From an uncultured Desulfobacterales bacterium (GTDB taxonomy: Bacteria; Desulfobacterota; Desulfobaccia; Desulfobaccales; 0-14-0-80-60-11): a stretch of 64,000 nucleotides of DNA. The position numbers and the translations under genes were made by a program. Location: positions 1,517 to 65,516 of the forward strand of contig CAZFWX010000001.1 of the NCBI GenBank assembly GCA_964522695.1, in the 5' to 3' direction. The notes below the pieces were generated by a model. That model did not search any database. It was not told where the DNA came from and saw only the letters and a program-made list of their open reading frames with translations. Shown one piece after another: positions 45,781 to 63,613 of the stretch; position 1 is the stretch's first letter, and each line of letters starts with the position of its first letter.

Positions 45781-46149
45781 CCCCTTACTCAGGACTGGAG
45801 TAAGAAACCAAGCCGTTGGCCGGATCAGCCACCGGCTGAGTCAGTCTCAGGCCGATGGAGCAACCCCCGGGCTTTAGCCCTGTCCGGAGGGCTATTTCAC
45901 CTAACCGGCCATTCAGGGGGCGCGAAATATCTGCGCGTAATTCAAAAATAAATCCTTAAACAAATAATTCAATGGGGGGGAGGCCGCTTGCTGAACCGGG
46001 AGGTCAAACGGTCTGTTCAAGTCCTGATTGGGTGAGTCATGCCGGAAACGGGGAGACGAAAATCTCCCGACGCCCTGGCATTTGCCGGCTGTGAGACTTA
46101 TCAGATAAGCAGGTTCCGGGAGAAGGCGGGAAAAAGGAGGAATGCACCC

Positions 46150-46593
46150 ATGACCAAGAAGGGCTGGTGGCTGGCAGGAGGCCTGATATTGTTGGCGGCG
46201 ACTCTTGCGCCCGCCGCGTGGGGGCAACCGGCAGAACCGCCCCAAGGCTGCCCGCCGGGGATACAGGGGGAGAAGCTGATCAAAGAGTTGAACCTGTCTC
46301 CGGAGAAGGCCCAGGCATTCATGGGGCTGTGCGGCAAATACGACAAGATCCGGAGAGAAATCAGGGAGGCCATGACAGCCCACGAAGAGGCCCTGGCGAA
46401 GGTCCTGGCCGCAGCTCAGCCGGATGAAGCCAAAGTCAAGGAACTGGTGGCCGCCATCGCCCAGGACCATGAAAGGCTATTCGACACCTTCAAGGCCCAG
46501 CGCCGGGAGGAAATGGCCCTTTTGACCACCGTGCAGCAGGGAAAATTCATCCTGGTCCTCAAGAAATGGCACGATGACATGAGGAAGCCGTAG
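46150..46593 (+). CDS. Periplasmic Spy/CpxP/ZraP-like (LTxxQ) protein
   Basis: Signal peptide ..APAAWG|Q. All-helical, charged sequence with LTTVQ. RBS AAGGAGG. Confidence 0.65.
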   Translation: MTKKGWWLAGGLILLAATLAPAAWGQPAEPPQGCPPGIQGEKLIKELNLSPEKAQAFMGLCGKYDKIRREIREAMTAHEEALAKVLAAAQPDEAKVKELVAAIAQDHERLFDTFKAQRREEMALLTTVQQGKFILVLKKWHDDMRKP

Positions 46594-46697: not shown

Positions 46698-47825
46698 TCA
46701 CTTCTTCTCAAAAAGGGGCAGGTACTTGCCGTAACCATCCTTTTCCAGGTCTTCTTTGGGAATGAAACGCAGGGCGGCGGAGTTCATGCAGTACCTTAAG
46801 CCTGTGGGCTTAGGGCCGTCTGGGAAGACGTGGCCGAGATGCGAGCCGCCGTGTTTGCTGCGCACCTCGATGCGTTTGGAAAAGAGCTTCCAGTCGTCCT
46901 TCTCCACGATGTTGCCGGGCTCAAGCGGCTTGGTGAAGCTGGGCCAGCCAGTGCCGGAGTCATACTTGTCCAGCGATGAGAACAGCGGCTCGCCCGAGAC
47001 GATGTCCACGTAGATCCCTTCCCGTTTGTTGTCCCAGTATTCGTTCTGAAAAGGCGGTTCTGTGCCCTCTTCCTGGGTCACCTTGTATTGCAGGGGGGTC
47101 AGCTTTTTGCGCAATTCGGCCTCGCTGGGTTTCTTAAAGCCGGGGTTGCCGGGGGCCTGGGCGGCAGGCTTGCCTGCCTTGCCCCAGGTCCCTTCCAGGA
47201 ACTGATCCCGGCCAGAGTTATGGCGGTAGTACTTGTACCGCAGAGGGTTTTTCCTGTAGTAGTCCTGGTGATAATCTTCGGCCCGGTAAAATGTGCTGAA
47301 GGGCAGGATCTCGGTGACAATGGGCCTGGTAAAGCGCCCGGATTTCTCCAACTCTTTTTTGGATTCCTCGGCCAGCCGCTTTTGCCCGGCGTCATGGTGG
47401 AAAATGACGCTGCGGTATTGACGCCCCCGGTCCACGAATTGCCCGCCGGCATCCGTGGGGTCCACATGCCGCCAGAAGTAGTCCAGCAATTCCTGGTAGG
47501 AGACTTTGCGGGGATCGTAGCGCACCTGGATGACCTCCACATACCCCTTCCGGGCGTAATCCTCATAGGTGGGATTGGCCCCGTCGCCCCCCGCATAGCC
47601 GGACACGGCCTCCACCACGCCGGGCAGTTTTTCAAAGTCGGATTCGGTGCACCAGAAACAGCCGCCGGCAAACGTGGCGACTTCGAGTTGTGACTGTCCT
47701 TCCGGCATGCCGCCTCCCTGCCCAGGTTGCTGCTTCGCTGCGGCCGCAGCGTTGGAGGCCCGTGTCAGAGCTAACCCGCCCATAACGGCCAGCGCCAAAA
47801 AAGAAATCAGCAAAAAATTTTTCAT
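46698..47825 (-). CDS. msrAB: Exported bifunctional peptide-methionine sulfoxide reductase MsrA-MsrB
   Basis: Signal peptide. MsrA motif GGCFWC. MsrB motifs GTGWPSF and RYCMNS. Confidence 0.9.
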
Positions 47826-47950
47826 GAAAACGTCTTCGCGCGAAACTCCCCGGCCGGCATCCGGCAGGGGCGGGTTCTTTCAAAGGAAGGAGCAAAAGGG
47901 CTGCCCCGCGCCTCTTGCTCCTTCCAACCCATACACTCCCAAGGAAAATC

Positions 47951-48364
47951 TTATTTACCTTTGTCATCCAGGGGGTAGCCGGCTTTTTCCCACTCCACCC
48001 AGCCGCCCTTCAGGACTGACACCTTGGTAAATCCCAATTCAACGAGTCTGCGTCCCACCCGGGAACTGGTGCCTTCGCCGGATCAGGCGCAATAAAGGAC
48101 AATCTCCTGGTCCGGGGCGTACTTTTTGGCCCAGACCTCTATCTTGCTGGCCTCTTCCCGCATTGCGCCCTTGATCTTTTTGGCGCTGCCCGCCCAATCC
48201 TTGGGGGCGCGCACGTCAATGATGGTCAGGCCCGGCTTCCCCAGGGCCGACTTGAGCTCGTCTTTGCTTATCAGGGGCGCATCCTTGGCCCCGGCCGTCT
48301 GCAACGGGGCCAGTAACAGCCCCAGGCAGATGGTCAGCATAAATAATTTTCTCCAGTGAAACAT
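47951..48364 (-). CDS. Exported single-domain rhodanese with an in-frame UGA (48083-48085) at the catalytic-Cys position; probable selenoprotein
   Basis: The ORF-track fragment ends ..EIVLYCA*. The same frame continues SGEGTSSRVGRRLVELGFTKVSVLKGGWVEWEKAGYPLDDKGK* to TAA at 47951-47953, which completes a typical rhodanese C-terminus. Confidence 0.65.
48058..48082 (-). other. Candidate bacterial SECIS-like hairpin immediately 3' of the rhodanese UGA
   Basis: mRNA UCCGG(C)GAA-GGCACCAG-UUCCCGGG folds to 8 bp with one bulge. Folded by hand only. Confidence 0.3.
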
Positions 48365-48366
48365 GG

Positions 48367-49200
48367 TTAACCCCGATTCAGCCGCCAGTCATATTTTTTG
48401 TAGGCCACCTTCAAGACGCCGGCGTTATCCTGGATAAAGGCAAGGTCTTCTTTATTATCCAGGTAACGGGCAATAAACCGCAAACGTTCCGCCTGGCTGG
48501 CCCCAAAGTCCCGGCCATACCATTTGAAGATGCTGGACAGGGAGATACTCATCCCGGACCGGTCGAGAACCGCGCCCCCTGAGTTTATGAAGGTTTGGGC
48601 GGCAATGGTGAGTTCCTCCTCCAGATTTTCGGGGGTATACACGTCGATGAAGGGGCATGAGGAAGACCCGCAGACCAGGGTGAAGTGGATGCGGGGATCG
48701 AGGAGCTCCACGATGAAGTTCAGCCGAGGGTCGCGGCCCCCAAAGCGCCGGAAGAAAGCATAGGGCGGACGGCGGTTACCCCGGAGAACGCCGTGCTCGA
48801 TGTCGTCGGGACTGAAGAGGTGACCGCCGATCTGGTAGTAGACCCGGCCGAAAAAATTCCAGATCTCTTTGACCGAATCTTTGACACCCAGGGCGATAAC
48901 CCCGTGGATGACGATGACATTGTACAGGTTGATCCAGAAGGCGATCCTTTCCTCCCGACGGGTCAGCACCCCCAGGTCCATGGTCTTCAGATTATGGCTC
49001 AGCTGCAAAAAATCCTGATATATCCCGGATTGGCCCATCCGTTCATAGGCCACCCTGCCGGTTCCGGCTTCGAAAAACGCCCCCCGCATGGCGGTCATGG
49101 CGCTCTTCAGTTGCGCAGCCATTTCCTGGGGGAAAAGCTGGGCGGCGGGTTCACCGTCATTTAAAAGGGTCTTCTTAAAAAGAAATCCCGGAGAAAACAC
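48367..49200 (-). CDS. DUF547 domain protein
   Basis: ERIAFWINLYNVIVIHGV motif. Confidence 0.8.
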   Translation of the reverse strand: MFSPGFLFKKTLLNDGEPAAQLFPQEMAAQLKSAMTAMRGAFFEAGTGRVAYERMGQSGIYQDFLQLSHNLKTMDLGVLTRREERIAFWINLYNVIVIHGVIALGVKDSVKEIWNFFGRVYYQIGGHLFSPDDIEHGVLRGNRRPPYAFFRRFGGRDPRLNFIVELLDPRIHFTLVCGSSSCPFIDVYTPENLEEELTIAAQTFINSGGAVLDRSGMSISLSSIFKWYGRDFGASQAERLRFIARYLDNKEDLAFIQDNAGVLKVAYKKYDWRLNRG

Positions 49201-49277: not shown

Positions 49278-50630
49278 TTAGCGGCCGCGGCTTCTCTGGA
49301 AGGTGAACTCCACCGCCGCCTTTACCGGCTTCCCCTCTACTTCCAGAACAGGGTAGGCCAGGAAATTTATCGGGCCGGACTTGGGTCCCGGTTCAACCAC
49401 CAGATCGCGCCCGCGACTGAATTCGAAGCGATTGGCCGGATGGTGGCCGAAGTAGTAGGTGGCCAGATCCGCGTATTTGTTGCCTTCGCTGATGTCCACC
49501 GGCCACCATTTGCCTTCGGCATAAAATTCCGCCCAGCAGTGATAACCGTCAATGCCGCCGTCGTTGCGCTCCGAAGGGATCGCCGCGCCGATGGCGAAGC
49601 GGGCCGGCAGGCCTGTCGCCCTGGCCAGGGCAATGAAGTAGGCGTGAAAATCCGTGCAGTTGCCGGTGCGGGCGTCACAGGCGTAGACCGCGTCGCCCTT
49701 GCCCCAGCCCTCCCCGTATTTTATATAGCGCATGCGCTCGATGACGTGGTCATACAGGGCCCGGGCCCGCACCAGATCGCCCGTCTTGCCCTGAACGGCC
49801 TGCCGGGCCTCTTGCCGGAAGGTCTCATTGAGCGGCACCAGGCGCTCCGGTGCAAGATACTTGCCCGGGCCAGGAGTCGGCGCGGCATAGGGAGCTTTCT
49901 CGAGGCGCTTGACCTGATAGGCGATCTCAACTTTTTTCCCACTGTCCTCCGGGCCAAGTTCGAGGAACAGGACCCGGTTGCCGTGTTCCTGCTCCGTCAG
50001 AACGCTTTTTTTCCCCGGAACCTGCATGGCCTTGACCGTCACCGTCTGGAAGGCGTCGGTGGACGCCAGCGGCAGCCACATGCGGGCGGGGGCGGTGAGG
50101 GCAGGCAGCGTGGCCCGGTAGAAAAACTCGAACTCATCGCGTCCCCTGATAACCCCCAGGAGGCTTTCGGCAGCCCCCGTGACGGGAACGCGGCGCCAGG
50201 CGCCATCACTCTGCTGCTCCCAGGCGTAATAAGGCTTGCCGTTGAGCTTATGGACAATGGTTTCGGTGACCTTCATGCTCGCCGGATCGCCGGCAAGGAA
50301 AAAATCAACGTCATAGACGTCGCCGCTCACATCCACCAGGTCAACGCAGGCGAAATACCGGCCCTGGTCCAGCTTGGAAAGATACTCCGTATGGACCCGA
50401 ACCAGTTTCAGGCGCAGTTCCTTATCACCAAAGGCGAGCTTGAAATATCCTCCCCCCTGGCGGACCTGCTCTTCGATATGCCTCTCAATGCCTGCCTGGA
50501 TCTGGGCGGTCACCGGGGCGGGCTGGGGAGAGGCGAAAGCTGCCCGGGGGCCCGGCTTCTCTCCCGGAGCGCCCGGCGAACACACAACGCAAATTAGCAC
50601 CCCCGCTGCCGTCAGCGTTTTCCAGATCAT
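49278..50630 (-). CDS. Secreted transglutaminase-like (Cys-His-Asp core) protein
   Basis: Signal-like N-terminus. GNCTDFHAYFIALARATGLPARF core motif. Confidence 0.8.
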   Translation of the reverse strand: MIWKTLTAAGVLICVVCSPGAPGEKPGPRAAFASPQPAPVTAQIQAGIERHIEEQVRQGGGYFKLAFGDKELRLKLVRVHTEYLSKLDQGRYFACVDLVDVSGDVYDVDFFLAGDPASMKVTETIVHKLNGKPYYAWEQQSDGAWRRVPVTGAAESLLGVIRGRDEFEFFYRATLPALTAPARMWLPLASTDAFQTVTVKAMQVPGKKSVLTEQEHGNRVLFLELGPEDSGKKVEIAYQVKRLEKAPYAAPTPGPGKYLAPERLVPLNETFRQEARQAVQGKTGDLVRARALYDHVIERMRYIKYGEGWGKGDAVYACDARTGNCTDFHAYFIALARATGLPARFAIGAAIPSERNDGGIDGYHCWAEFYAEGKWWPVDISEGNKYADLATYYFGHHPANRFEFSRGRDLVVEPGPKSGPINFLAYPVLEVEGKPVKAAVEFTFQRSRGR

Positions 50631-57369: not shown

Positions 57370-57804
57370 ATGGCGAAAGTCGGCGCAAACAGGATGGGGC
57401 GTGCAACGAAAGGTGGTGAGGCCATGGCGACATGCAGCACGGTTCTGATTGCCGAACCCGGGGATCATCTGACCGGCGGCCTGCGGCTGTGGGTGCGCGA
57501 CAACGGGCATCAGCTTCTCACCGTGGACAAATTCACGGATCTCCTCATCACCTTGCAGCGGGAAAAGGTCAGCGTTCTGGTCATGGACGTGCGCCTCTCC
57601 GAGGGACATGGGTATGAAGCCATCTCCATCATCAAGGGGTTGTGTCAGAAACTGCCCATCATCATCTGCGCCGCGGAAAACAACCCGGAACAGGAGGCCC
57701 TCATCCGCCAGAAAGGCATCTTCTATTACCACGTCACGTCGTTCGGCCTGGAAGAACTGATGATGGCCATTTCCAACGCCCTGGGGCGGGCCGCGCACGT
57801 CTGA
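57370..57804 (+). CDS. Stand-alone CheY-like receiver-domain protein
   Basis: VLIAEPGD..VLVMDVRLSEGHGYEAISIIK..PIIICAAE receiver pattern. Confidence 0.7.
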   Translation: MAKVGANRMGRATKGGEAMATCSTVLIAEPGDHLTGGLRLWVRDNGHQLLTVDKFTDLLITLQREKVSVLVMDVRLSEGHGYEAISIIKGLCQKLPIIICAAENNPEQEALIRQKGIFYYHVTSFGLEELMMAISNALGRAAHV

Positions 57805-57815
57805 AGGGAGACCCC

Positions 57816-58685
57816 ATGCAACTGGAACCCAAACTGGCAAAAGGGGAATTTGTCATTCTGGCGGAGATGGAGCCTCCCAAAGGGGCAGACGTCTCCGAAA
57901 TGGTGGGCCATGCCCTGGCCGTCAAAGGCCGGGTGGACGGCTTTGTGGTGCCGGAGATGAGCAGCGCGGTGATGCGCTTGAGCTCCCTGGGCGGGGCCAT
58001 GCTCCTGGCCAACCGGGGCTTGACCTCAGTGATGCAGGTCTGCTGCCGGGACCGCAACCGCCTGGCCCTGCAGGCGGACCTCCTGGCCGCCAACGCCCTG
58101 GGCATAGAGAACGTCATGGCCGTGACCGGCGATGACATCACCTTTGGCGACCACCACAAGGCCCGGCCGGTGAATGACCTGGACCTGATGGAGCTGCTGG
58201 GGGCCCTCAAGACCCTCATGTCCGGCCGGGATCTGGCCGGCATCGAGCTCAAGGGCGCGCCCCGGTTCTTCGTGGGGGCCCTGGCCAACACCGGAGCCAA
58301 GGCCCTGGACCTGGAGCTGGCCGACCTGGACCAGAAGGTGGCCGCAGGGGTGCGCTTCTTTCTGACGCCCCCGGTCTTTGACCTGGCCGTCCTGGAACGC
58401 TTCCAGAAGCGCCTGGCCGGCGCCGGCGCCTATCTCATCCCCACCGTGCTCCTGCTCAAAAGCGTGGGCATGGCCCGGTACCTGGACCGCCATATCGAGC
58501 AGGTCAGCGTTCCCGCCGCGGTCATCGACCGGCTCCAGAAGGCCCCGGAGCGGGTGCGGGAGTGTGTGGCCATCGCCGGGGAACTGGTGGCCGGCGTCCG
58601 GGATATGGGGCTAAGCGGCGTCAACCTGTCCACCATCGGCTGGGAAGACAAACTCCCGGCCGTGCTCGCGGCCGCGGGTCTGTAA
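57816..58685 (+). CDS. metF: Methylenetetrahydrofolate reductase (MetF, acetogen/sulfate-reducer type)
   Basis: FVILAEMEPPKG..CRDRNRLALQADLLAANALGIENVMAVTGDD..FFLTPPVFD motifs. RBS GAAGGGAG. Confidence 0.85.
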   Translation: MQLEPKLAKGEFVILAEMEPPKGADVSEMVGHALAVKGRVDGFVVPEMSSAVMRLSSLGGAMLLANRGLTSVMQVCCRDRNRLALQADLLAANALGIENVMAVTGDDITFGDHHKARPVNDLDLMELLGALKTLMSGRDLAGIELKGAPRFFVGALANTGAKALDLELADLDQKVAAGVRFFLTPPVFDLAVLERFQKRLAGAGAYLIPTVLLLKSVGMARYLDRHIEQVSVPAAVIDRLQKAPERVRECVAIAGELVAGVRDMGLSGVNLSTIGWEDKLPAVLAAAGL

Positions 58686-58710
58686 TCACTGTCGGCAAGA
58701 GGGCGGTATC

Positions 58711-61700
58711 ATGGCAGAATCACAGATGCAATCCAATCCTTCCACCCCTCCCACCGGTGCGGTCATGGTGGTGGGCGCGGGTATCGCCGGGGTGCAGGCG
58801 GCCCTGGACCTGGCCAAATCCGGCATTTTCGTCCACCTGGTGGAGAGCAAACCGGCCATCGGCGGGGTCATGGCCCAACTGGACAAGACCTTCCCCACCA
58901 ACGACTGCTCCATGTGCATCCTCTCGCCCAAATTGGTGGAATGCGGCCGCCATCTGAATATCCAGATTCATACCTTAACCGAAGTGCAGGACATCAGCGG
59001 AGAGCCGGGGCATTTCACCGTCAGCCTGACCAAGCACCCCCGCTATATCGACCCGGCCAAATGCACCGGCTGCGGCGACTGCACCAAGGTCTGCCCGGTG
59101 CTCATTCCGGATGAGTTCAACCAGGGACTGGCGGACTGGAAGGCCACCTACCGCCTTTATCCCCAGGCCATCCCGGCCGCCTTCGCCATCAAGAAGCTGG
59201 ACCGGGCGCCCTGCACTCTCACCTGCCCTGCGGAAATCAACGTCCAGGGCTACGTCCAGCTCATCAAGATGGGCAAATATGAAGAGGCGGTCAGGCTCAT
59301 CATGGAGCGCCTGCCGCTGCCCGGCGTTCTGGGCCGGGTCTGCCCGCACCCCTGTGAGGACCAGTGCCGGCGCAAGGACTTGGATGAACCCGTTTCCATC
59401 TGTTCCCTCAAGCGCTTCGCCGCAGACCAGGTGGATCTCGCGGCCATCAATCCGCCGCCCGTGGAGGCCCGGCCGGAGAGAATCGCCATCGTCGGCTCCG
59501 GCCCCGCGGGGCTGGCCTGCGCCTACCATTTGGCCCTTAGGGGCTACCGGCCCACCATCTTCGAGGCCCTGGACAAGCCCGGCGGCATGCTGCGGGTGGG
59601 CATCCCGGACTACCGCCTGCCCAAAGACATATTAGATAAGGAAATTGACAATATTCTGCGCCTGGGGGTGGAGCTCAAAACCAATACCGCCCTGGGCCGG
59701 GATTTCACCCTGGACGGCCTCTTTGACCAGGGCTACCAGTCAGTTTTCCTGGGTCTGGGCTGCCACCTGGGCAAACCCCTGGGCATCCCCGGCGAGGACG
59801 CGGACGGCGTGGTCCAGGGCGTGGATTTCCTGCGGCGTCAGAGTCTGGGCCAGCCCCAGCCCGTGGGGAAGCGCCTGGCCGTGGTGGGCGGCGGCAACGT
59901 GGCCATCGACGTGGCCTGCACCGCCCGGCGCCTGGGGTCGGACGTCACCATCGTCTACCGGCGCTCCCGGGAGGAGATGCCCGCGTTCCACCACGAAGTG
60001 GAGCAGGCCCTGTGCGAAGGCGTCAAGATCGTCTATCTGGCCGCGCCCCTGAAAGTCGTCGCCGGTCCTGACGGCAAGGTCACGGGGCTCTTGTGCCAGC
60101 AGATGGAGCTGGGCGAGCCCGACGCTTCGGGCCGGCGCAAACCGGTGCCCATCCCCGGCCAAGAGTTCGAACTGGCCGTGGACATGGTGGTGCCGGCCAT
60201 CGGCCAGGAAGCGGCGCTAACGGCCTTCCAAGACTGGGGCGTCAACGTCAGCAAGTGGGGCACCATCGAGGTGGACGAGGTCAGCTACCAGACCTCCCGG
60301 CCCGGGGTCTTCGCCGCGGGCGACGTGCACACCGGCCCCTGGATCGCCATCGAAGCGGTGGGGGGCGGCATCGAGGCCGCAGAATCCATTGACCGCTACC
60401 TCAAGGGCCTGGACCTCACCGCGGGCCGGGTCCTGGGCAAGGAGGCCCACCAGCGCTGGGCCGACATCCCCAAGGACGAATACGGCCAGTTGCGGGAGGA
60501 AATGCCCACTCTGCCGCCCGAGACCTCCTGCGCCTGCTTTGACGAAATTGCCCTCGGCTTCAGCGAAGCCCAAGCTCAAAAAGAGGCGGCCCGCTGCCTC
60601 AATTGCGGCATCTGCTCCGAATGCATGCAGTGCGTTATCGCCTGCCAGGCCAATGCCGTGGACCATACGCAACAGCCGGAGACGCTGAACGTGGAGGTGG
60701 GTTCCGTGATTCTGGCGCCGGGATTCAAGACCTTTGATCCGGCGCGCATGGCCACCTACGGCTACCTGACCCACCCCAACGTGGTCACCGCCCTGGAATT
60801 TGAGCGCATCTTATCGGCCAGCGGCCCCTTCGAAGGGCACCTGGTGCGGCCCAGCGACCACAAGGAACCCAAAAAGATCGCCTGGCTGCAGTGCGTGGGC
60901 TCAAGGGACGTCAAGACCCACTCGTATTGCTCGTCGGTATGCTGCATGTACGCCATCAAAGAGGCGGTCATCGCCAAGGAGCACGCCGACTACCCCCTGG
61001 ACTGCGCCATCTTTTTCATGGACCTGCGCACTTTCGGCAAGGACTTCGAGAAATACGCCAACCGGGCCCAGGATGAAGCCGGGGTGCGCTTCATCCGCTC
61101 CCGCATCCACAGCATCGACCCGGCCCCGGACGGAGGTTTGGCCCTGCAATACCTGGATGAAACCGGGGCCATTAAGACGGAAGACTTCGACCTGGTGGTC
61201 CTGTCCGTGGGCATGGAGATCACCGAGGACGTGAAAAGGCTGGGCGCCAAACTGGGGGTGGAGCTGAACAGCCACGCCTTCGCGTCCACCCATCCCTTTG
61301 CGCCGGTGGCCACCTCCCGGCCCGGGGTGTACGTCTGCGGCGCCATGGCCGGCCCCAAGGACATCCCAGAATCCGTCACCCAGGCCTCCGCTGCGGCCGC
61401 AGCCAGCAGTGCGCTCCTGGGCCAGTCCCGCTGGACCCTGACCCGCACCCGGCAGATCCCCGAACCCAAGGATATAACCGGCGAGCCCGCCCGGGTGGGC
61501 GTGTTCGTCTGCGACTGCGGCATTAACATCGCCAGTGTGGTGGATATTCCCAGGCTGTCCGAATACGCCCGGGGTCTGCCCCATGTAGTCTTTGTGCAGG
61601 AGAACCTCTTCACCTGCTCCCAGGACACCCAGGTGCAGATGCTCAAGGCCATCGAAGACCACAATATCAACCGGGTGGTGGTGGCCGCATGCACGCCCCT

Positions 61701-63150
61701 GACGCACGAGGCCCTGTTCCGGGAAACCCTGCTGGACGCGGGGCTGAACAAGTATCTCTTCGAGATGGCCAACATCCGCAACCAGGACTCCTGGGTGCAT
61801 ATGCATGAGAAGGAGGAGGCCACGGAGAAGGCCCAGGACCTGGTGCGCATGGCCGTGGCCCGGGCCACCCTGCTCAAGCCCCTGGTGGAGACGCCTCTGA
61901 CCATCAATCAGCGGGCCCTGGTGCTGGGCGGCGGGGTGGCGGGCATGAACGCCGCTTTGAACCTGGCGGATCAGGGTTTTGAAACCATCCTGGTGGAAAA
62001 GGAGCGGGAACTGGGGGGTCTCGCCCGCCGGGTGCACCATACTCTCGAAGGCATGGACGTGCAGGCCTACCTGGACGGCCTCATCGACCAAGTGAAAAGC
62101 CATGAGAAAATCCAGGTCCTCACCCAGGCCCTGGTGGTGGGCTACAGCGGCTACAAGGGCAACTTCGTGACGGAAGTCCTGGTGGGCCCCGGCATGTATG
62201 AACGCAAAATCGAGCACGGGGCCACGGTCATCGCCACCGGCGCGCAGGAGTACCGGCCCAAGGAATTTGCTTACGGCAGCCATCCCGGCGTCATGACCCA
62301 GCTCGAACTGGGCCAGATGGTGCACGAACAGAAGGATAAAGTGGCGGGCTGGCAGCGGGCCTTCTTCATCCAGTGCGTGGGCTCCAGAAACGAAGAGAAC
62401 CCCAACTGCAGCCGCATCTGCTGCCAGGGCGCGGTGAAGCATGCCCTGGAACTCAAAAAGCTCAACCCGGTCATGGAGGTGGTGGTGCTCTACCGGGATA
62501 TGCGCACCTACGGGCTCCAGGAGGACTACTATCTGGAGGCCCGCAACCAGGGGGTGCTCTTCTCCCGCTTCGATCTGGAGCGGCTCCCCCAGGTGAGCGA
62601 AGCCGGCGGGAAGCTCTCGGTGCAATTCCTGGACCACGTCCTGCAGATGCCGGTGAGCCTGCCCGCGGACGCGGTCATCCTGAGCGCGGCCACGGTGGCC
62701 GGCGATAACGAGGAGCTGGCCTCGCTGCTCAAGGTCCCCCGGGGCTCGGAAGGCTTTTTTATCGAAGCCCACGCGAAACTCAGGCCCGTGGATTTCTCCA
62801 GCGAGGGCATCTTCCTGGCGGGCAGCGCGCACAGCCCCAAGCTGGTCACGGAGAGCATCGCCCAGGCCCTGGCTGCGGCCTCCCGGGCCGGGGCGTTTTT
62901 AGCGGACACCAGCCAGACCATCAGCGGCGTCACTGCCTGCGTCACGCCGGACCGCTGCGCCGCCTGCCTCATCTGTGTGCGGGTCTGCCCCTTCAAGGTG
63001 CCGCAGATCAACCAGGATAATGTTTCGGAGATAAACCGGGCCCTGTGCCAGGGGTGCGGCATCTGCGCCTCGGAGTGCCCGGCCAAGACGATCCAGGTGT
63101 CCCATTACGAGGACGACCAGATTACCGCCAAGATCAAGGCGCTGTTTTAA
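58711..63150 (+). CDS. hdrA: Giant HdrA-like flavoprotein (1479 aa): two HdrA modules with an inserted GltD/NfnB-like NAD(P)H-binding module (HdrL-type)
   Basis: FAD motif VVGAGIAGVQAALDLA. Several CxxCxxCxxxCP clusters. GltD-like block PCTLTCPAEINV..GRVCPHPCEDQC..IAIVGSGPAGLACAYHL..VVGGGNVAIDVA. Two HdrA cores (CVGSRD..YCSSVCCMYAIK and CVGSRNEE..CSRICCQGAVK). Confidence 0.9.
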   Translation: MAESQMQSNPSTPPTGAVMVVGAGIAGVQAALDLAKSGIFVHLVESKPAIGGVMAQLDKTFPTNDCSMCILSPKLVECGRHLNIQIHTLTEVQDISGEPGHFTVSLTKHPRYIDPAKCTGCGDCTKVCPVLIPDEFNQGLADWKATYRLYPQAIPAAFAIKKLDRAPCTLTCPAEINVQGYVQLIKMGKYEEAVRLIMERLPLPGVLGRVCPHPCEDQCRRKDLDEPVSICSLKRFAADQVDLAAINPPPVEARPERIAIVGSGPAGLACAYHLALRGYRPTIFEALDKPGGMLRVGIPDYRLPKDILDKEIDNILRLGVELKTNTALGRDFTLDGLFDQGYQSVFLGLGCHLGKPLGIPGEDADGVVQGVDFLRRQSLGQPQPVGKRLAVVGGGNVAIDVACTARRLGSDVTIVYRRSREEMPAFHHEVEQALCEGVKIVYLAAPLKVVAGPDGKVTGLLCQQMELGEPDASGRRKPVPIPGQEFELAVDMVVPAIGQEAALTAFQDWGVNVSKWGTIEVDEVSYQTSRPGVFAAGDVHTGPWIAIEAVGGGIEAAESIDRYLKGLDLTAGRVLGKEAHQRWADIPKDEYGQLREEMPTLPPETSCACFDEIALGFSEAQAQKEAARCLNCGICSECMQCVIACQANAVDHTQQPETLNVEVGSVILAPGFKTFDPARMATYGYLTHPNVVTALEFERILSASGPFEGHLVRPSDHKEPKKIAWLQCVGSRDVKTHSYCSSVCCMYAIKEAVIAKEHADYPLDCAIFFMDLRTFGKDFEKYANRAQDEAGVRFIRSRIHSIDPAPDGGLALQYLDETGAIKTEDFDLVVLSVGMEITEDVKRLGAKLGVELNSHAFASTHPFAPVATSRPGVYVCGAMAGPKDIPESVTQASAAAAASSALLGQSRWTLTRTRQIPEPKDITGEPARVGVFVCDCGINIASVVDIPRLSEYARGLPHVVFVQENLFTCSQDTQVQMLKAIEDHNINRVVVAACTPLTHEALFRETLLDAGLNKYLFEMANIRNQDSWVHMHEKEEATEKAQDLVRMAVARATLLKPLVETPLTINQRALVLGGGVAGMNAALNLADQGFETILVEKERELGGLARRVHHTLEGMDVQAYLDGLIDQVKSHEKIQVLTQALVVGYSGYKGNFVTEVLVGPGMYERKIEHGATVIATGAQEYRPKEFAYGSHPGVMTQLELGQMVHEQKDKVAGWQRAFFIQCVGSRNEENPNCSRICCQGAVKHALELKKLNPVMEVVVLYRDMRTYGLQEDYYLEARNQGVLFSRFDLERLPQVSEAGGKLSVQFLDHVLQMPVSLPADAVILSAATVAGDNEELASLLKVPRGSEGFFIEAHAKLRPVDFSSEGIFLAGSAHSPKLVTESIAQALAAASRAGAFLADTSQTISGVTACVTPDRCAACLICVRVCPFKVPQINQDNVSEINRALCQGCGICASECPAKTIQVSHYEDDQITAKIKALF

Positions 63151-63160
63151 GGAGTGGCCC

Positions 63161-63613
63161 ATGGACGCGTTCCGACCGAAAATCCTGGCCTTTTGCTGCA
63201 TGTACTGAGCGTACTCGGCCGCGGACCTGGCAGGTTCGATGAGGCTGCAGTACCCCCCGGACATCCGCATCATTCAGGTGCCGTGCACCGGCAAGGTGGA
63301 CATCATCCACCTGCTCACGGCCTTTGAAGAGGGGGCGGACGGGGTTTTCGTGGCCGGTTGCCAGGAGGGCGATTGCCACTTCCTGGAAGGCAACCTGCAT
63401 GCCAAGAAACGGGTCCAACGGGTCAAGGAGATCCTGGAGAAGGTGGGCCTGGGCGCGGGCCGGGTGGAGATGTTTAACCTGTCCGCAGGCATGGGCCCCC
63501 GCTTTGCAGAAATCGCCCGGGAGATGGACGCGCGTATCAGGGAGATGGGCCCCAGTCCCATCCGGAAGGCCAAGCCCTCCCTCCCCCAGGCCGCCACGGA
63601 GGTGCGGGTATGA
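63161..63613 (+). CDS. mvhD: MvhD-like (methyl-viologen-reducing hydrogenase delta subunit family) protein with in-frame UGA at 63206-63208; probable selenoprotein
   Basis: ATG at 63161, with RBS AAGGAG 7 nt upstream. MDAFRPKILAFCCMY-UGA-AYSAADLAGSMRLQYPPDIRIIQVPCTGKVD is in frame with the track ORF 63239-63613. The UGA sits where the family has the second Cys of the F-x-C-x-W-C-S-Y-x-G-A-D motif. Confidence 0.7.
63222..63238 (+). other. Candidate SECIS-like hairpin 14 nt after the mvhD UGA (CGGACC-uggca-GGUUCG)
   Basis: 6-bp stem (one G-U pair) folded by hand. Confidence 0.3.

Follow-up and report, generated by a model that had tools for sequence, protein, structure and literature searches.

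The 64-kb window, i.e. the whole stretch of DNA analysed here, harbors on its minus strand (48364..47951) a gene that very probably encodes the 137-residue precursor of a selenocysteine-containing single-domain rhodanese. This assignment, already put forward in the first-pass annotation, relies on a conserved in-frame TGA, on homologues that carry a Cys at the same position, on a covarying hairpin, on purifying selection past the TGA, on a second candidate selenoprotein gene (mvhD) in the window, and on a match to the NCBIfam model NF041203. Judged by this match, the gene is an ordinary member of a known and curated family, the LYCAU selenoproteins. Since this family has already been described and curated, the result is an annotation fix rather than a discovery. 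Its main value lies in the corrected annotation, in which split fragments become one LYCAU selenoprotein gene.

Gene, Leader and Rhodanese Domain

The gene and its parts are the following:

47951..48364, minus strand: predicted selenoprotein gene, 137 codons plus TAA, with a signal peptide ahead of one rhodanese domain that bears the L-Y-C-A-U motif
48287..48364, minus strand: predicted Sec-type signal peptide, residues 1-26, from simple sequence measures
47984..48265, minus strand: rhodanese domain, residues 34-127 (Pfam PF00581)
48089..48091, minus strand: TGC codon of Cys92, partner in the C-x-U dyad, from the homologue alignment
48083..48085, minus strand: in-frame TGA, codon 94, probably read as selenocysteine, present in 27/27 non-redundant homologues

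The minus-strand ORF starts with an ATG at 48364 and is translated as MFHWRKLFMLTICLGLLLAPLQTAGAKDAPL...QEIVLYCA, up to a TGA at 48085..48083. Past this TGA, translation of 47940-48364 on the minus strand yields in the same frame SGEGTSSRVGRRLVELGFTKVSVLKGGWVEWEKAGYPLDDKGK, a stretch of 43 codons that ends with a TAA at 47953..47951. Translation thereby reproduces the coordinates and the peptide of the first-pass annotation, which had described an ORF ending at ..QEIVLYCA(UGA) with 43 in-frame codons behind it. The codons CTT TAT TGC GCC TGA, at 48097..48083, form the L-Y-C-A-U motif. With U replaced by C, the Pfam Rhodanese profile (PF00581) matches residues 34-127 (E-value 2.4e-15). Because the match covers these residues, the rhodanese domain runs across the UGA, and the rest of the domain lies beyond this codon, as had been claimed.

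The N-terminus of the protein (MFHWRKLFMLTICLGLLLAPLQTAGA, followed by KD) resembles a signal peptide when judged by simple sequence measures, in agreement with the earlier proposal. Two K/R residues (R5 and K6) are present, acidic residues are absent, the core is hydrophobic (KD 2.7), and the end is A-x-A-like; heuristic measures predict cleavage after TAGA. An equivalent signal-peptide-like N-terminus is found in all homologues. The structure predicted by AlphaFold for the Cys homologue P0004 (mean pLDDT 78) matches the rhodanese structures 3ilm, 6mxv, 1gmx, and 1qxn with a Foldseek probability of 1.00.

Conservation of the UGA Codon

The homologue set is composed of 27 non-redundant sequences from metagenomes and MAGs, with identities of 42-91%. 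All 27 have a TGA at the codon 94 position, and TAA or TAG occurs in 0/27, a pattern well beyond chance. A protein search of a 5.8-billion-protein collection returns nine relatives, eight of which are gene-caller products with ...LYCA or ...LYCG as their last residues. The remaining one, P0004, is full length (...LYCACPNEWTSSRVGRRL...) and possesses a Cys where the UGA stands. In a second protein search, seeded with this Cys form, 21 of the 23 matches end at LYCA, and Sec forms therefore dominate the clade. When the DNA of the protein matches is translated through the stop, a conserved xxxGTSSRVGR.L..GFTK.KVLKGGW.EW follows in every case; the internal stop is always TGA and the final stop always TAA.

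A scan of 185,579 species-representative genomes adds 38 further loci, found in MAGs of Desulfobaccales, Syntrophobacterales, Syntrophales, other Thermodesulfobacteriota, Thermodesulfovibrionales, and Candidatus Deferrimicrobium, as well as in Acidobacteriota relatives. Outside the Cys forms, the aligned codon of these loci is TGA, and neither TAA nor TAG is found. The closest relatives belong to Desulfobaccales/Desulfobacca MAGs. Alignment with Cys-containing orthologs places, at the UGA codon, a TGT in L005 (the locus of P0004) and a TGC in the Acidobacteriota loci L038-L047 (Bryobacterales, Terriglobia), which read LYCACKD.

The codons located after the UGA are conserved rather than decayed. 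Their frame is kept, and dN/dS values of 0.06-0.56 over 38 codons (Nei-Gojobori method, window gene versus 11 relatives) indicate that they are under purifying selection. An independent short-read assembly, L001 (Logan SRR12686701), is identical in sequence, TGA included.

A Compact SECIS-Like Hairpin

A conserved hairpin is found downstream of the UGA:

48052..48066, minus strand: SECIS-like hairpin GUUCC-CGGGU-GGGAC, with stems at 48066..48062 and 48056..48052 and loop at 48061..48057

The 55 nt counted from the UGA align without gaps among the 27 non-redundant Sec-form genes. In this 27-sequence alignment, RNAalifold finds a single helix, pairing columns 20-24 with columns 30-34 around a 5-nt loop. 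In the helix columns, 98.5% of the cells are paired, versus 33-61% after a shift of the 3' partner by 1-3 columns, and the covariation score of the hairpin is reached by 0/500 shuffles. At pair 21/33, U-A and C-G occur in 13 sequences each and U-G in one. As both of its columns are third codon positions (AGY Ser, GGN/GCN), the compensation takes place at synonymous sites. Pair 22/32 is either G-C or U-G, and pair 24/30 is C-G in 26 sequences and U-A in one. In all 27 sequences the second loop position is a G and the third a G or U. The UGA and the start of the loop are separated by 21 nt.

The limits of the bSECIS model, as given in PMC13188914, are a loop of 3-9 nt, a stem of 4-16 bp, a G in the first two loop positions, a spacing of 16-37 nt, and an MFE of -7.5 kcal/mol or lower. 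Compared to this model (bSECISearch, Zhang and Gladyshev), the 5-nt loop, the 5-bp stem, the loop G, and the 21-nt spacing are within the limits. The conserved 5-bp stem, however, is near the minimum length, and the window hairpin reaches -7.5 kcal/mol only with a non-conserved lower stem. Alone, the hairpin folds at about -5.1 kcal/mol; when it is enforced and the lower stem is added, the folding energy of the window sequence is -8.1 to -11.2 kcal/mol. The lower stem (columns 9-12 with 40-43), with 67.6% of its cells paired, was dropped as a part of the SECIS, and it is not claimed here because it is poorly conserved.

The first-pass annotation had placed the hairpin elsewhere, at 48058-48082, directly 3' of the UGA. 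Such a hairpin is indeed present in the MFE fold of the window sequence, but its stability does not exceed that of shuffled sequences (z = -0.65). It also involves the three codons that follow the UGA, which vary among the homologues, and it is therefore not conserved; the conserved hairpin is the one at 48066..48052.

The distant Cys forms of Acidobacteriota lack the SECIS-like hairpin. Cys forms near the Sec forms (L005, L023-L025) still keep it, so its conservation could stem in part from protein coding or recent ancestry. In the close Cys form L005:2250, in which the codon is TGT, the hairpin GCUCC-CGGGU-GGGGC is the same as in the Sec form L011:10283, which suggests a recent switch between Sec and Cys. 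A SECIS this compact and supported by covariation (5 bp, 5-nt loop, 21-nt spacing) could be of use for the automated annotation of selenoproteins.

Probable Selenocysteine Decoding and mvhD

Among about 40 ORFs of the 64-kb window, Pfam scans reveal no SelA, SelB, or SelD, and ARAGORN finds no tRNA genes in the window, tRNA-Sec included. As the window is devoid of sel genes, the Sec machinery of the genome is deduced only from two UGA-containing genes, the rhodanese gene and the following:

63161..63613, plus strand: mvhD/FlpD gene with a TGA at 63206..63208 (FCCMY-TGA-AYSAADLAG); Pfam FlpD matched over 1-123/123

The Pfam FlpD match extends across the in-frame TGA (E-value 1.2e-50), and this TGA is located at a Cys-equivalent position, as had been pointed out for a second in-frame UGA at a conserved Cys of mvhD. 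By this match, mvhD is the second predicted selenoprotein gene of the window. Together, the LYCAU selenoprotein and mvhD would mark the organism as Sec-decoding. In deltaproteobacterial symbionts, the selenoprotein families reported as most abundant are MvhD/FrhD and HdrA (PMC1976440).

A stable hairpin is predicted just past the mvhD TGA, with a 66-nt fold at -23.1 kcal/mol. Upstream of mvhD, an MTHFR gene (57642-58685, plus strand) is followed by a gene for a 1479-residue HdrA-like flavoprotein/ferredoxin fusion (58711-63150), an ORF in which no internal TGA is found. With mvhD, the 57642-63150 region looks like a cluster of the metF-hdrA-mvhD type.

Alternative Readings of the UGA

In a pseudogene or truncated gene, the TGA would be a nonsense mutation at codon 94 and the downstream similarity a decaying remnant. 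Public gene callers do stop at this TGA (85 aa at NCBI, 93 aa at JGI), and the tail is sometimes called as a separate ORF of 33-35 aa. This reading is nevertheless extremely unlikely: the same TGA is shared by 27 non-redundant homologues of 42-91% identity from several phyla, never as TAA or TAG. The downstream frame is moreover free of indels and stops, with dN/dS at 0.06-0.56, and a fragment ending at residue 93 would be deprived of the active-site loop, a helix, and two strands. The TGA might also be an assembly or sequencing error in place of a real TGC or TGT. Nothing specific points to it, beyond frameshift-like disruptions in the long-read MAG loci L035 and L036, and its probability is vanishingly small given the identical TGA of the independent short-read assembly L001 and the TGA of 26 further homologues from unrelated samples. 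The conserved TGA and frame, the dN/dS values, and the independent assembly together rule out a pseudogene, a sequencing error, and two separate genes.

The UGA could in principle be decoded otherwise than as Sec, either by reassignment to Trp or Gly or by leaky near-cognate read-through, with Cys or Trp, independently of SelB. This would fit with the 64-kb window showing no Sec machinery genes, but it is very unlikely. TGA is the ordinary stop of msrAB (46700) and of mvhD (63611-63613), and UGA is therefore not reassigned. Furthermore, homologues carry Cys, not Trp or Gly, at the UGA position; a covarying hairpin occurs at SECIS spacing; and the other in-frame TGA belongs to mvhD, a classic selenoprotein, at a Cys-equivalent position. 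Sec insertion at codon 94 is the preferred reading.

The LYCAU Family and Known Relatives

The read-through protein scores 150.7 bits (cutoff 115, E-value 1.5e-44) against NCBIfam NF041203.1, rhodanese_LYCAU, with residues 17-135 on profile positions 8-126 of 126. NF041203 is an equivalog model for a "rhodanese-related (seleno)protein", with a curated cutoff of 115 bits, and its name is the exact motif of the window gene. The protein of locus L026 reaches 168.7 bits on the same model. With this family, the window protein shares the motif, the size, the hydrophobic leader, and the UGA with a bSECIS-fitting hairpin; there is no substantive difference, the window copy being merely annotated short (85/93 aa).

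A rhodanese selenoprotein family with a CxU motif is listed in reviews (PMC13188914, PMC9312934). According to the first of these, it has been predicted since 2005, first with bSECISearch (reference 13 of PMC13188914). The selenoproteins counted in the Sargasso Sea data likewise include rhodanese-related sulfurtransferases. The earlier statement that rhodanese-like selenoproteins occur in deltaproteobacteria is borne out by the delta-proteobacterial symbionts of Olavius algarvensis, for which eight rhodanese-related sulfurtransferase selenoprotein genes, including a UxU form, were documented in 2007 (PMC1976440). The Olavius UxU form corresponds to the same family concept, and three of the present loci (L026, L029, L031) carry U-x-U, whereas in the window gene the first position is a Cys instead of a Sec.

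Of the further rhodanese selenoproteins, form 1 (UxxS, WP_010941598.1) and forms 2 and 4 (UxxG) have in common with the window protein a rhodanese fold with a Sec in or near the active-site loop, but their motifs and architectures differ. TsoB, a rhodanese/DsbD fusion (UxxxxU, NF045694), is alike in its fold with Sec and differs in architecture; the window protein scores 24 bits on its model, for a cutoff of 805. E. coli GlpE (1gmx) and PspE (2jtq), the Wolinella polysulfide-sulfur transferase Sud (1qxn), Anabaena Alr3790 (3ilm), and the Francisella protein 6mxv have in common with the window protein the fold and the strand/active-site loop/helix layout. These single-domain Cys rhodaneses possess one catalytic Cys and a 6-residue loop, whereas the LYCAU family displays a loop two residues longer, a C-x-U dyad, and T-S where many rhodaneses have R-S. 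PspE and Sud are periplasmic.

Variants of the Active-Site Loop

The vast majority of long-loop homologues have a C at the Cys92 position, and three (L026, L029, L031) have a TGA. In these three MAG loci (L026:10241, L029:10241, L031:10226), the codons TAC TGA GCC/ACC TGA place two TGAs one codon apart, giving U-x-U. Only one hairpin, of the same kind, is found downstream, so that a single SECIS apparently serves the two UGAs.

In a short-loop subgroup, ...IVLY-U/C-QKEGTIVRVARKL, the loop lacks two residues and contains a single Cys/Sec. Its members carry Sec in L032:10256 and L037:2289 (Y-U-QKEGT) and Cys in L023-L025 (Y-C-QKEGT), and the subgroup passes NF041203 at 136.3 bits. The hairpin is kept as UCGUC-CGGGU-GGCGA, and 21 nt again separate the UGA from its loop.

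The full-length protein P0019, from an ENA metagenome, has neither Cys nor Sec in its active-site loop (...EIVLYYTKGIKSSRVGREL...) and is presumably a catalytically inactive rhodanese-like variant. In L035 and L036 (long-read MAGs MFD01872 and MFD01721), the frame is lost at or shortly after the active-site region; these loci may be decayed copies or bear assembly indel errors.

The C-x-U Dyad and Proposed Mechanism

The canonical catalytic position, Sec94 or Cys92, is ambiguous from sequence alignments and the structural model. The first-pass annotation had located the UGA where the active-site Cys normally sits, with another Cys two residues upstream. The C-A-U arrangement stands, and HMMER (phmmer and hmmsearch versus the PDB) places U94, ungapped, on the catalytic Cys of the best match, 6mxv (YFYCGGGFRS). 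From U94, the G-F of the next helix is 17 residues away, as in GlpE. The assignment of the catalytic position to the UGA is countered by two results that favor C92. When the family profile is compared by hhalign to GlpE, C92 is paired with C65 and A-U forms a two-residue insertion. In the AlphaFold model of P0004, the central strand ends at the Tyr, the loop is C-A-C-P-N-E, and the helix starts from the next residue, which in this model is canonical geometry for the first Cys. The C92 and U94 placements score equally. The short-loop subgroup, with its 21-nt spacing kept, mildly favors equating its single Cys/Sec with U94. We conclude that Cys92 and Sec94 are both within the predicted active-site loop, between the central β-strand and the next helix.

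Following the general bacterial Sec pathway, SelB-GTP-Sec-tRNA(Sec) would bind the hairpin once the ribosome has reached the UGA, and would insert Sec at codon 94. When selenium or SelB binding is lacking, translation would stop at the UGA and release a 93-residue fragment devoid of the last third of the domain. The predicted N-terminal signal peptide would direct export, leading to a periplasmic protein of about 111 residues. The Sec94 selenolate would then be the nucleophile that accepts sulfane sulfur or another electrophile, and Cys92 would resolve the intermediate via an intramolecular selenenylsulfide, a division of roles that is the most likely chemistry for the dyad. In all long-loop members, each dyad position is occupied by C or U, with U-x-U in three, which argues that both residues are needed. 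The protein would thereby act in a redox or sulfur relay, and not as a plain one-Cys thiosulfate sulfurtransferase.

Genomic Neighborhood

Downstream of the rhodanese gene, on the same strand, the window contains:

47885..47925, minus strand: long GC-rich hairpin followed by UUUG, terminator-like, between the rhodanese stop and the msrAB start
46698..47825, minus strand: MsrA-MsrB fusion (Pfam PMSR+SelR) with a signal-peptide-like N-terminus

The terminator-like hairpin (GGAAGGAGCAAGAGG...CCCUUUUGCUCCUUCC) lies in an 81-nt region that folds at -37.3 kcal/mol, and its inner part is scored as a terminator-like site (47907..47889). It is likely a transcription terminator that separates the rhodanese gene from msrAB. 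On the other side, a DUF547 gene (48367..49200, minus strand) ends 3 nt ahead of the rhodanese start codon, and a transglutaminase-core gene (49278-50630, minus strand) is located upstream of it. From this layout, the DUF547 and transglutaminase-like genes are more likely than MsrAB to be the co-transcribed partners of the rhodanese. In L028, a transglutaminase-like homologue (85% identity over 101 aa) is found just upstream of the rhodanese.

From the signal peptide and the adjacency to an exported MsrAB, a periplasmic Se-based redox or sulfur-transfer role had been suggested. The adjacency itself is real and the N-termini are similar, but a functional link to MsrAB finds no support beyond three near-identical relatives, and the terminator-like hairpin stands in between. 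According to tblastn of the window neighbours against all loci, MsrAB and DUF547 lie beside the rhodanese only in L001, L009, and L010, whose rhodaneses are 89-100% identical to the window protein. It is highly improbable that the exported C-x-U rhodanese is a dedicated periplasmic redox/sulfur-relay partner of the adjacent MsrA-MsrB fusion. In favor of such a partnership are the adjacency kept in these three closest relatives and the signal-peptide-like N-termini of both proteins; against it are the absence of the adjacency in the rest of the family and the strong terminator-like hairpin. If such a partnership exists, the cell envelope would contain a selenium-dependent module for methionine-sulfoxide repair. 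More generally, all-against-all clustering of the ORFs within 5 kb of the rhodanese gene in 29 loci yields no neighbour conserved across the family, and the gene neighborhood was dropped as a clue to function, no family-wide partner having been found.

Adjoining MsrAB, a divergent gene (46039-46593, plus strand) encodes a 184-residue protein with a Pfam Metal_resist domain (heavy-metal resistance, Spy/CpxP-like) and a hydrophobic N-terminus. With the exported MsrAB, it could be part of an envelope-stress neighborhood.

Annotation in Public Records

The gene is recorded as a protein of 85 aa at NCBI and of 93 aa, labelled "SseA", at JGI. Mis-annotation of this kind is systematic in NCBI, JGI, ENA, and Logan, in which the family appears as a 'rhodanese/SseA' fragment of 85/93-99 aa, at times accompanied by an ORF of 33-35 aa. 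The C-terminal part is thus found as a separate ORF in L002:4123-4227 and L003:2088-2189.
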